Assembly: GCA_934162445.1 (NCBI GenBank)
Contig: CAKPIT010000002.1
Span: forward strand, 77,379 to 141,378
DNA: 64,000 bases
Direction of reading: 5' to 3'
Source: an uncultured Bacilli bacterium
GTDB lineage: Bacteria > Bacillota_I > Bacilli_A > RF39 > UBA660
The translations under genes were made by a program, and so were the position numbers. The notes beneath the pieces were generated by a model that made no database searches, was not told where the DNA came from, and saw only the letters and a list, made by a program, of their open reading frames with translations. The stretch's first letter is position 1. Each line of letters opens with the position of its first letter. Below are positions 42,338 to 45,307 of the stretch, one piece after another.

Positions 42338-42721
42338 GGGGATGAAATGGTTTCGACAGGAATAATGGAACATAAACGGCAAGTCGAGTTGTTTACGTTA
42401 CAAACTAACAAATAATAACTGGAAACAGTATAAAAACAGCATTTGCTAATTTATTTGGTAAAAGAACTCCAGAATTAGCTTTAGCCTAGTTTAGGTAGAT
42501 GCACTGCTTATTCTTAATTTTCTACGTTAAGATGTAGTGGTTTATATTTAGTAGAATATAGTTATAGAATGTCTTGGCTATAACTGAATTATTAAGACTT
42601 GAATTGATTTATAGTTGATGATTACTAAGAATTAATTTGAAATTTGCTTAATCATCTAAACTTGTAGATGTTTATGAGGATTTATTTTTGGACAGGAGTT
42701 CAACTCTCCTCATCTCCACCA
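42338..42721 (+). ncRNA. ssrA: tmRNA (ssrA)
   Basis: 5' GGGGATGAAATGGTTTCGACAGG pairs with a 3' tRNA-like end. T-arm GGAGTTCAACTCTCC, then CATCTCCACCA. An internal tag reading frame ends ...PELALA-TAG at 42487-42489. Follows smpB. Confidence 0.8.
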
Positions 42722-42905
42722 AATTGATAGGAAACTCGAATTTTTCGATTTAAAAATATAAAGATTTGATAAAAGGATACTTTTATGTTATTGGTATATA
42801 GATGAATTAAAAAATGTTGATAGATTGTATTCATCTAATTATGTTAGAGCAATATCAACTGCTAAATATATAGCTAAAAATAATAATATTGATATTTGTG
42901 TAGTT

Positions 42906-42923
42906 GTCAATGATGTGACACCC
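42906..42923. repeat. Left copy of a ~20 bp inverted repeat in the tmRNA-tRNA gap
   Basis: GTCAATGATGTGACACCC. Its reverse complement matches 43313-43334 (GGTGTCACATCA core, 12/12, plus flanks). Confidence 0.5.
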
Positions 42924-43312
42924 AAAATAAATCAGAAAAAATATTAATCCTAGAAACTTGAAGTATTTCGTGCTTCTATTATTTTTATTCTTTTTTCAAG
43001 TGGAGAAGGGCATCTCAATACTTGCATAGGATATTGTTAGAACGTTTTAAATAAGTTTTCATTTGATGCTTTAAATCTTTGTAAGAATAGAATTTTAAAT
43101 AATTATAAAATCTATTAATGATTCTTTTGTTCCATTAAATTTTTTATTCCATCTCATTAATGATGATTTAGATATTCTATATAATTTGTAGTATAATACT
43201 TTGTGTTTATTTCATGCGGTATATAACGTTGATTTTGTGATATACTTGTCATAAGCAATAAGTCCTTTCTATATTTTAATATTTTATCGGATTTTTTGCT
43301 TTTTTTTATATG

Positions 43313-43334
43313 TGTGGTGTCACATCAATTGTAA
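43313..43334. repeat. Right copy of the inverted repeat
   Basis: GTGGTGTCACATCAATTGTAAC. About 390 bp separate the two copies, with no ORF of 60 aa or more between them. Confidence 0.5.
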
Positions 43335-43413
43335 CGCTATATTATTCAAAATACAAAATAGGAAACTTAGTTTTCTTTTTTTATTACTTGTGTTATACTA
43401 ATATTATTAATTT

Positions 43414-43489
43414 GCCGACTTAGCTCAGTTGGTAGAGCAACTCATTCGTAATGAGTAGGTCGAAGGTTCAAGTCCTTTAGTCGGCACCA
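43414..43489 (+). tRNA. tRNA-Thr (anticodon CGU)
   Basis: Cloverleaf: acceptor GCCGACT/AGTCGGC, D-arm GCTC-AGTTGGTA-GAGC, anticodon stem ACTCA/TGAGT with loop TTCGTAA (anticodon CGT), T-arm GAAGG-TTCAAGT-CCTTT, and an encoded 3' ACCA. Confidence 0.85.
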
Positions 43490-43569
43490 TATGTTATTAG
43501 ATGGATCAATATTTATTGATCTTTTTTGGTGTTTTAATATTTATATGTTAAAATAATAGTGGAGGTATT

Positions 43570-44772
43570 ATGGAAAAAGAAAGAATGAGAGTTAGTATTT
43601 TACCTAATCAGTTCTTAGGAAGTGATGGGGTTTTTGATAAAGAGGGGGCTATTAAACTTTCTGCTAAAATAGCAGGGGTTTGTTATGATAAATTAGGATT
43701 TAATAATCTTGTTAACGAACCATTGGAAAAGACTAAAAGACGGGCTGATTTAACGCTTTCAATGGGACATTATAGTGTTTATGATCATATTTTTATAAGT
43801 TTTAATTTAGAAAATATTCCTAAGATGTTAGCAATGGTTTTAAACAATGAGAAACAGTATACGACTAGTGAGAAATCGGCTCGGTATACAAAAATTGTTA
43901 AAAATGAAGGATCTAATATTACTTCTTTGGAGGAGGAACTTTATAATAAGTGGTTAGATATTTTTAAGTTTAAAATTAAAGATACTTATGGTGATGTTTT
44001 AAATGATTCTAAAATTGTTAAGTTGGCTCAAGAGAATGCAAGATATTTGGTAACGGTGTTTATGCCAACTGAGATGATTTATACTACATCGTTAAGACAA
44101 GTTAATAATTTAGCAGCTTTTATGAAAGAATATATGGCTAATATTGATACAAATAGTAGTTTTGATAGGAAGCTTGCTGAATCTATGGGTGAATTGATAA
44201 CTTGTTTTGATAAACTTAATGTTCTTGATGAAAGACTTATGAAAAATGAAAAAAATAGATGTTTATCTATTTTTGGTCATGATTTAGCTAATAAGCAAGA
44301 ATATTTTGGTGATATTTATTCTACTATATATATGGGATCTTTTGCTTCTTATGCTCAAGCTCAAAGACATAGAACCCTTTCTTATCAATTTGAAATGCTT
44401 GATGATAAAAAGTATTTTGTGCCACCTATTTTAGATGATGATGAAAAGTTAGTGAATGAATGGAATTGTGATATTAGAAGTGTTCATGAGGTTATACCAC
44501 AAGGGGAGATGCTTTTAATAAGTGAAGTAGGAAAGTATGATGACTTTATCTTAAAAAGTAAAGAAAGATTATGTACTTCGGCACAACTTGAAATAATGTT
44601 ACAGACTAGGAATACATTATTAAAATATAAGGAAGCATTAGAAAATACTAATAATCCACTTGCTGAAGATATTTTAAAATATTCACATGGGGCAAGATGT
44701 ACATTTCCGGATTTTAAATGTCCTAATGATTGTAATTTTAAAGAAGGGAAGACTTTAGTAAGAAAAATTTAA
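43570..44772 (+). CDS. Divergent ThyX-fold (FAD-dependent thymidylate synthase family) protein, ~400 aa, lacking the RHR motif at its canonical position
   Basis: N-terminus aligns with ThyX (AKIAGVCYDK vs ARVSF/ACYQS; MGHYSVYDHIFISF vs GHFSVLEHASVSF). At the ThyX motif RHRx7S..RY this protein has NEKQYTTSEKSARY, so Ser and RY are kept but RHR is lost. An RHR occurs about 150 aa later (SYAQAQRHRTLSY). The protein is about 150 aa longer than typical ThyX. Confidence 0.45.
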   Translation: MEKERMRVSILPNQFLGSDGVFDKEGAIKLSAKIAGVCYDKLGFNNLVNEPLEKTKRRADLTLSMGHYSVYDHIFISFNLENIPKMLAMVLNNEKQYTTSEKSARYTKIVKNEGSNITSLEEELYNKWLDIFKFKIKDTYGDVLNDSKIVKLAQENARYLVTVFMPTEMIYTTSLRQVNNLAAFMKEYMANIDTNSSFDRKLAESMGELITCFDKLNVLDERLMKNEKNRCLSIFGHDLANKQEYFGDIYSTIYMGSFASYAQAQRHRTLSYQFEMLDDKKYFVPPILDDDEKLVNEWNCDIRSVHEVIPQGEMLLISEVGKYDDFILKSKERLCTSAQLEIMLQTRNTLLKYKEALENTNNPLAEDILKYSHGARCTFPDFKCPNDCNFKEGKTLVRKI

Positions 44773-44872
44773 AATATTTTGACAATCTTTATTGTTAGTA
44801 ATTCTTAGTTGAAAAAGAATTTATAAAATGTTATGATAGTAATAGAGAATAAAGGTGGTGTTTTTTGGAATG

Positions 44873-45307
44873 GATAGTTTTGTTAAGTTTTTTAGGGATA
44901 CACTTAATGGCCCTTTATATATAGTAGTAGTAGTTATTTGTGTTATTTTGATTTTTGCTTGTATTGGTTATTTGGCTGAAAAGAGCATTAATGCTAAAAA
45001 GGAAAAGGAAAAGTATGCCGATGTTAAAAATGATGATGTTGTTAATGTTAAACCACTAGAAGAGGTTAATAATGTTACGTCTTCTGTTTTTGAAGAGGGG
45101 AGTGCACCTAGTAGTGGTGTGAGTCAAGAAGTGGGGCAACAGGAAGTCGTTCAAGAGGTGGTTCCTACTACTCCTTTAAATGATAATACAAATAATGGTA
45201 CAACTATGGGTCCTCAAGTAGTAACTTCTACTAACGTAGTTTCTGTTCCTGAGGTTTTAGTAACACCAACTGATGAAGTGGTTATACCCACTGTAGAGAA
45301 TAAGTAG
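44873..45307 (+). CDS. Membrane-anchored protein with a Ser/Thr/Val/Pro-rich disordered tail
   Basis: One TM helix followed by low-complexity sequence. Directly upstream of cdaA. Confidence 0.35.
   Translation, partial: DSFVKFFRDTLNGPLYIVVVVICVILIFACIGYLAEKSINAKKEKEKYADVKNDDVVNVKPLEEVNNVTSSVFEEGSAPSSGVSQEVGQQEVVQEVVPTTPLNDNTNNGTTMGPQVVTSTNVVSVPEVLVTPTDEVVIPTVENK

Follow-up and report, generated by a model that had tools for sequence, protein, structure and literature searches.

A predicted two-domain ThyX-fold thymidylate synthase with a split active-site signature in an uncultured Bacilli bacterium

A 64,000-nucleotide stretch of the genome of an uncultured Bacilli bacterium (GenBank assembly GCA_934162445.1, contig CAKPIT010000002.1, positions 77,379 to 141,378; hereafter the window) encodes a 400-amino-acid (aa) relative of the flavin-dependent thymidylate synthase ThyX. 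The classical contiguous RHRx7S(x)RY signature is not found within any one domain of this protein, and family-wide it is split across two. Predicted structures make it very likely that the protein consists of two fused ThyX-fold domains, not of a single ThyX core with an insertion. Judging from the residues retained in each half, we consider it probable that the protein is a two-domain synthase that uses flavin adenine dinucleotide (FAD) and methylene-tetrahydrofolate to turn deoxyuridine monophosphate (dUMP) into deoxythymidine monophosphate (dTMP) at complementary split sites. The seemingly displaced RHR motif would then stem from an internal duplication with fusion, after which the two halves lost complementary residues.

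Family membership and motif map

The open reading frame (ORF) is uninterrupted and preceded by GGAGG, 4 nt before the ATG. A sequence-only reading of the window had proposed a ThyX relationship, and the Pfam Thy1 profile (PF02511) agrees: it matches residues 26-181 with 57 bits (gathering score, 24.8; E 2.9e-15), and this match, together with the ThyX fold, places the protein in the ThyX/Thy1 superfamily. Identity to solved ThyX structures is only 13-19%. The protein belongs to a family of ~400-aa proteins with 4,263 matches among 90%-identity clusters and 624 among 50%-identity representatives, 304 of the latter with E < 1e-30. Members are named in their sources as ‘FAD-dependent thymidylate synthase’, ‘thymidylate synthase ThyX’ or ‘hypothetical protein’. 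The non-viral genomic matches are metagenome-assembled genomes from gut, rumen and digester, labelled Bacilli bacterium, Tenericutes, Clostridium sp. CAG:524 and CAG:1193, Erysipelotrichaceae or Clostridia, which suggests RF39-like uncultured gut Bacilli as the carrier lineage. Family members are also encoded on 17 IMG/VR viral contigs (L107-L123), many of them 90-270 kb long. The locus around a further protein, P0252 (L026), is phage-like in look, most of its ORFs being without a Pfam match.

Conservation counts below refer to 131 diverged relatives, taken as representatives at <=50% identity. The numbering of the T. maritima ThyX reference sequence reproduces the published H53, R78, H79, R80, S88, R90, R147 and R174. 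All features of the gene lie on the forward strand:

43570..44772, +, whole ORF of the predicted tandem ThyX-fold protein, stop codon included, with the ribosome-binding site GGAGG at 43561-43565
43570..44223, +, predicted N-terminal ThyX-fold domain, ~residues 1-218 (Pfam match 26-181, profile alignment and secondary structure; boundary approximate)
43765..43788, +, G66-H-Y-S-V-Y-D-H73, the ThyX ‘GH.S..EH’ block (alignments and family conservation)
43822..43824, +, K85, which aligns with M. tuberculosis R87 and H. pylori R66, a dUMP phosphate contact (counted from alignments)
43846..43854, +, N93-E94-K95, degenerate canonical-RHR site of the N-domain (alignments)
43864..43887, +, T99-S-E-K-S-A-R-Y106, retained ‘S..RY’ substrate loop (alignments)
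44026..44046, +, A153-Q-E-N-A-R-Y159 (alignments)
44224..44655, +, predicted C-terminal ThyX-fold domain, ~residues 219-362 (boundary approximate)
44353..44376, +, A262-Q-A-Q-R-H-R-T269, RHR motif and preceding Gln, predicted functional (C-half profile alignment)
44560..44595, +, K331-E-R-L-C-T-S-A-Q-L-E-I342, ThyX C-terminal motif with C335 inserted (alignments)
44656..44769, +, Cys-rich C-terminal tail, residues 363-400, C377-x6-C384-x3-C388 (conservation and predicted model)

The N-domain holds the counterparts of the residues that bind dUMP and support FAD in canonical ThyX, and is without RHR and R...AQ.EI. In its GH.S block, H67 corresponds to T. maritima H53 (130/131) and S69 to M. tuberculosis S71 (S or T in 129/131), both with an FAD-supporting role, and K85 is K in 130 of the relatives. 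The sequence-only reading had RHR lost and S..RY kept at the canonical site, and this was no misalignment: in a direct alignment to M. tuberculosis ThyX, and through a family profile to the H. pylori and M. tuberculosis enzymes, N93-E94-K95 faces the canonical RHR, and S103, R105 and Y106 face S..RY. Across the family, the first of positions 93-95 is N or S and the other two vary. The substrate loop is in turn nearly invariant, with E101 (128/131), S103 (130/131), R105 (130/131) and Y106 (125/131) equivalent to T. maritima E86, S88, R90 and Y91. R158, equally conserved (130/131), stands for T. maritima R147 and M. tuberculosis R172, which contacts the dUMP phosphate. Past the helix at 175-190, the N-domain has neither an Arg nor AQ.EI.

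The C-domain is the reverse. It holds RHR and R...AQ.EI and is without GH.S, S..RY and the equivalents of R147 and R165, so that an N-E-K x7 S-A-R-Y layout in the N-domain faces R-H-R x7 M-L-D-D in the C-domain. R266, H267 and R268 are conserved in 129, 126 and 128 of the 131 relatives, and Q263, equivalent to T. maritima Q75, in 122. The RHR that the sequence-only reading had noticed downstream is thus real and conserved (126-129/131), but it lies 173 residues past the canonical position and not ~150, and the adjoining ‘AQ’ likened there to the C-terminal motif (A262-Q263-A264-Q265) matches the helix that comes before the canonical RHR. The actual C-terminal motif is at R333...I342, where R333 (130/131) is the counterpart of T. 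maritima R174 and M. tuberculosis R199, which contacts uracil N3/O2, and Q339 and E341 are found in 126/131 and 130/131. At the reciprocal sites the C-domain is degenerate, with F258 in place of the phosphate-binding Arg, D324 in place of R190 and nothing conserved for S..RY.

Secondary structure and profile comparisons point to a ThyX fold in each half. Around each motif, the secondary-structure elements follow one another in the same order in both halves, and this is also their order around the canonical motifs; in the C-half it runs strand 249-257, helix 258-264, RHR, strand 271-276, strand 313-322, helix 323-333 and helix 340-359. A profile of the N-half aligns to T. maritima ThyX 36-176 (E 1e-7, single comparison). 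Against the same protein, the C-half profile gives collinear matches of RHR to RHR 78-80 and of AQlEI to AQWEI (E 7e-4 and 0.02), and sets the consensus ‘efYvP’ of the family (Y-F-V-P in the query, 282-285) against EFYIP.

Complementary retention, proposed assembly and the cysteine-rich tail

Canonical ThyX is a tetramer of ~220-aa subunits. Each active site in the M. tuberculosis and H. pylori enzymes draws on three subunits, with RHR and R199 coming from subunit A, S71 and R190 from B, and R87, Q103, S105, R107 and Y108 from C (PMC6514825). In an inhibitor structure of PBCV-1 ThyX, Q75 and R182 come from one monomer and S88 and Q89 from another (PMC3498832). R199 and R107 hold uracil O2/N3 and O4, and the phosphate is held by R87, R172 and R107 (PMC9571937; PMC12004180). 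Two arginines are said to polarise the uracil (PMC7226160; PMC12004180; PMC9571937), and their equivalents here are R105 and R333.

Sorted by these roles, the conserved residues fall into the two domains. Those of role A (Q263, R266, H267, R268, R333, Q339 and E341) are conserved only in the C-domain, and those of roles B and C (H67, S69, R176, K85, E101, S103, R105, Y106 and R158) only in the N-domain. Except for R176, this pattern is kept in all 17 viral homologues, at 30-44% identity. The composition of the active site was assessed over RHR, the C-terminal Arg, GH.S, the FAD-phosphate Arg, the substrate-loop S, R and Y, and the phosphate-binding basic residues; the full set of published FAD and dUMP contacts is present and near-invariant, spread over two domains whose residues are predicted to meet in space.

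This distribution would fit an assembly in which the C-domain provides one canonical subunit's share for FAD and the uracil ring (Q263, R266-H267-R268 and R333 with AQ.EI), and the N-domain the shares of the neighbouring subunits, with H67, S69 and R176 for FAD and K85, E101, S103, R105, Y106 and probably R158 for dUMP. In the D2 symmetry of the canonical tetramer, the four sites would each combine three subunits, in role order (A,B,C), (B,A,D), (C,D,A) and (D,C,B). Placing C-domains at A and D and N-domains at B and C would leave sites 1 and 4 complete and sites 2 and 3 dead. A homodimer of the fusion would then reproduce the ThyX tetramer, the C-domains lying on a diagonal and the N-domains in the other two positions, and this placement has exactly the C2 symmetry expected of a fusion homodimer. 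Each complete site would consist of one C-domain and both N-domains, giving two per dimer, with the two others extinct. As each N-domain would serve role B in one site and role C in the other, it would keep both residue sets.

The family has also gained a cysteine-rich addition. C335 (130/131), two residues past R333 within the R...AQ.EI motif, and C377 (125/131), C384 (131/131) and C388 (129/131) in the tail are all absent from canonical ThyX. The 38-residue tail carrying the last three is mostly coil, yet is modelled with a predicted local distance difference test score (pLDDT) of 93-98. The viral homologues keep these cysteines, except that C377 is V or T in 5/17. C38 is conserved as well; H. 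pylori and M. tuberculosis ThyX have a Cys at the same position, which marks it as ancestral. C335, C377, C384 and C388 probably bind metal, forming a candidate Cys4 site for structural zinc or an iron-sulfur (Fe-S) cluster. A bolder version, which we hold to be doubtful, has the four cysteines carry an Fe-S cluster that passes electrons from ferredoxin or flavodoxin to FAD, making an obligately half-site enzyme independent of reduced nicotinamide adenine dinucleotide phosphate (NADPH). The source habitats of the family are all anaerobic, although anaerobiosis also follows from taxonomy. If true, the bolder version would be a mechanistically distinct third route to dTMP in strict anaerobes and their jumbo phages; in general, the Cys4 site may indicate a different reductant, and its interest would be higher if it were redox-active.

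Gene neighbourhood and alternative readings

Thymidylate kinase (PF02223) is by far the commonest neighbour of the thyX-like gene, which supports dTMP synthesis. In 19/86 non-viral loci with enough flank it is the next gene downstream on the same strand, and in 5/87 the gene directly upstream (24/~87 in total), usually at a gap of 2-17 bp; the next commonest neighbour is found in 8 loci. A distant spore-former locus, at 45% identity, shows this pairing too. In three loci (L040, L049 and L061), two Tmk-like genes (thymidylate kinase or deoxynucleoside kinase) stand in tandem downstream instead of one. Other neighbours of the family are housekeeping genes (holA, rpsT and gpr; recA; ileS; ribosomal proteins). 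At L025 4784-8389, the locus of a distant family member (P0269), the thyX-like gene and three unannotated ORFs interrupt the ribosomal-protein operon on the opposite strand, with rplF on one side and rpsH on the other. A search of the window and of 1.3 Mb of flanks showed neither ThyA nor FolA nor a separate canonical ThyX, which is weak evidence for dTMP synthesis by the family.

Several points weigh against a two-domain thymidylate synthase. The NCBIfam thyX equivalog model (TIGR02170) scores 37.1 bits over residues 58-182, under its cutoff of 87.9. In the window itself, no tmk adjoins the thyX-like gene. R176, given an FAD role in the N-domain, is less conserved (106/131), and the cited ThyX papers do not say which subunit gives R147/R172. 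How the domains are placed, how the dimer forms, whether RHR reaches FAD and dUMP and whether the four cysteines cluster are predictions from the residue pattern, and the quaternary arrangement, number of active sites, substrate and metal binding are likewise predicted. Direct sequence comparison does not detect the second fold: the two halves show no significant similarity by BLASTP (E 0.049 over 31 aa) or by hhalign of the two half-alignments (probability 0.4%), and the C-half profile alone finds no ThyX match among PDB sequences. The case for the second domain therefore depends on the predicted structures and the short collinear motif matches, and the duplication must be old, or the halves must have diverged fast.

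The strongest competitor is a neofunctionalised ThyX paralogue that modifies another pyrimidine nucleotide, such as uridine monophosphate (UMP), deoxycytidine monophosphate (dCMP) or a hypermodification precursor, and is not the thymidylate synthase of the cell. The sequence-only reading had raised such a different chemistry as an option, and it would account for the score under the thyX equivalog cutoff, the family-specific Cys4 site, the rebuilt active-site architecture and the homologues on large viral contigs. It could also draw on the double-length structural relative in Bacillus phage SP-15, a phage known to carry hypermodified uracil. We nevertheless judge it unlikely. All published dUMP and FAD contacts are conserved, including R105 to O4 and R333 to O2/N3 (each 130/131), which argues for a uracil and against a cytosine substrate; with the latter, one would expect changes at these positions. 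Thymidylate kinase dominates among the neighbours, and the bacterial loci show no biosynthetic-cluster or DNA-modification context; in particular, a nucleoside-antibiotic cluster of the PolB type was not seen in neighbourhoods that consist of housekeeping genes or tmk. The gene is of a single-copy, housekeeping type in gut Bacilli with small genomes, and no further thymidylate synthase was seen in its vicinity.

Far less plausible is one ThyX domain in which an insertion of ~150-180 aa would contribute a relocated RHR in cis. It draws on the Pfam match, whose best stretch covers only residues 26-181, and on the halves not being detectably alike in sequence. The sequence-only reading, which had offered a ThyX with a large insertion and a rearranged active site, was right about the ThyX fold and about the importance of the downstream RHR; the insertion itself does not fully fit a protein with two domains.

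The position of the gene raised the question of mobility. As the sequence-only reading had it, the thyX-like gene follows a transfer-messenger RNA (tmRNA, 42338-42721) and a tRNA-Thr(CGT) (43414-43489). The tag of this tmRNA is unusually long at 22 residues, GNSIKTAFANLFGKRTPELALA, whereas in a related genome (L016) the tag is short, GNRNQLAFA. A conspecific contig (L124), with a 98% identical protein, has the same flank order as the window: rnr, PGA_cap, smpB, tmRNA ... tRNA-Thr, the thyX-like gene, a 145-150-aa membrane ORF, cdaA and cdaR. The membrane ORF, at 44855-45307 in the window (150 aa), has no Pfam match and combines a hydrophobic, membrane-like stretch, judged by eye, with a low-complexity tail; it is 145 aa long at the same place in L124 and L125. 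From the 3' flank of the tmRNA to ~70 bp before tRNA-Thr (~42778-43344), the two strains differ wholly. The window has ~565 bp of non-coding DNA there, with imperfect inverted repeats at 42911-42947 and 43276-43327, and the conspecific contig has ~1.85 kb with a 380-aa ORF without a Pfam match. The integration hotspot suggested by the sequence-only reading is hence a strain-variable segment of ~565 bp between tmRNA and tRNA-Thr, but the gene itself lies outside it, together with tRNA-Thr in a near-identical conserved flank. No integrase ORF was found at the tmRNA/tRNA-Thr locus, and the G+C content of the gene is 0.27-0.28, like its surroundings (window, 29.5%). Between the conspecific strains the ORF is intact, with 12 synonymous and 10 non-synonymous codon changes. 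A promoter and terminator scan in this AT-rich DNA was uninformative (17 sites against 20 expected). In relatives at ~60% identity the gene lies elsewhere and the smpB/tmRNA/cdaA synteny is not kept, so this synteny is uninformative on function.

The gene as island cargo at the tmRNA/tRNA site was rejected on its conserved flank, ordinary G+C and the lack of an integrase ORF. An inactive ThyX relic with a structural or regulatory role, or mobile-island cargo, which might be read from the lost contiguous signature, the adjoining tmRNA and tRNA and the variable segment just upstream, is highly improbable, given that the catalytic and ligand-binding residues are near-invariant in ~130 clusters (<=50% identity) and in viruses, that the variable segment stops upstream of tRNA-Thr with the gene in conserved flank, and that the G+C resembles that of its neighbours and the family occupies many unrelated chromosomal contexts.

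Comparison with known systems

The tandem family is best compared with canonical ThyX (TM0449, Rv2754c, H. pylori, PBCV-1 A674R; PF02511, TIGR02170, EC 2.1.1.148), whose fold it appears to contain twice. Shared are the ligand-contacting GH.S, S..RY, E..AR, N.R, Q..RHR and R...AQ.EI motifs and the tmk pathway context. In contrast to the ~220-aa canonical subunit, the family has one 400-aa two-domain chain in which RHRx7S is split and a Cys4 tail is added, and we predict two composite sites per dimer compared with four per canonical homotetramer. Annotation or metabolic reconstruction that relies on RHRx7S or on the TIGR02170 cutoff would miss or mislabel the family. In abundant uncultured gut Bacilli, and in some Clostridia and large phages, this family appears to supply the thymidylate synthase.

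The closest architectural relatives are proteins of cultured phages. In a Foldseek search of BFVD, the whole two-domain model aligned with gp020 of Microcystis phage Ma-LMM01 (491 aa; L126 15717-17192) over 482 columns with a TMq of 0.60, and the ‘thymidylate synthase’ of Bacillus phage SP-15 (413 aa) was a further double-length structural relative. The N-half of gp020 reads ...FNTMPLGAGQERSTRYQ, without RHR and with S.RY kept, and its C-half contains FNRHRSIWRY, a correspondence made by eye only. As gp020 shares the split, the architecture would be older and wider than the present family. Both phage proteins differ from it in their 12-14% identity, greater length and lack of a C-x6-C-x3-C tail, and both are uncharacterised; gp020 is annotated merely as ThyX (PMC5780444). 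A tblastn search of GenBank phages returned no full-length relative, only canonical phage ThyX weakly matching the N-half.

The ThyX paralogue PolB (PDB 4p5a), which acts in polyoxin biosynthesis as a C5-methylase of UMP and dUMP, is a single-domain protein encoded in an antibiotic cluster, whereas the present family is two-domain, solitary or beside tmk, and found in gut anaerobes. Chlamydial ThyX is about twice the normal length. We found no description of a tandem, fused or duplicated ThyX, or of a split motif, in a literature in which coverage of subscription journals was thin. The family is already named thymidylate synthase in databases, and its tandem split architecture may be undescribed.

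ThyX is a validated antibacterial target in which the re-reduction of the flavin and the communication between the four sites are still debated. The family would be a natural single-chain ‘heterodimer’, with active-site residues sorted by evolution according to subunit role, and would show independently which of them work in concert. It would also offer an asymmetric scaffold for half-site and mutational studies, in which one site can be mutated with its symmetry mates untouched. Although unrelated to ThyX in fold and reaction, the monomeric herpesvirus dUTPases provide an evolutionary analogy: there, too, an oligomeric nucleotide enzyme has been duplicated and fused, and its motifs have been redistributed over the two halves, leaving fewer composite sites.

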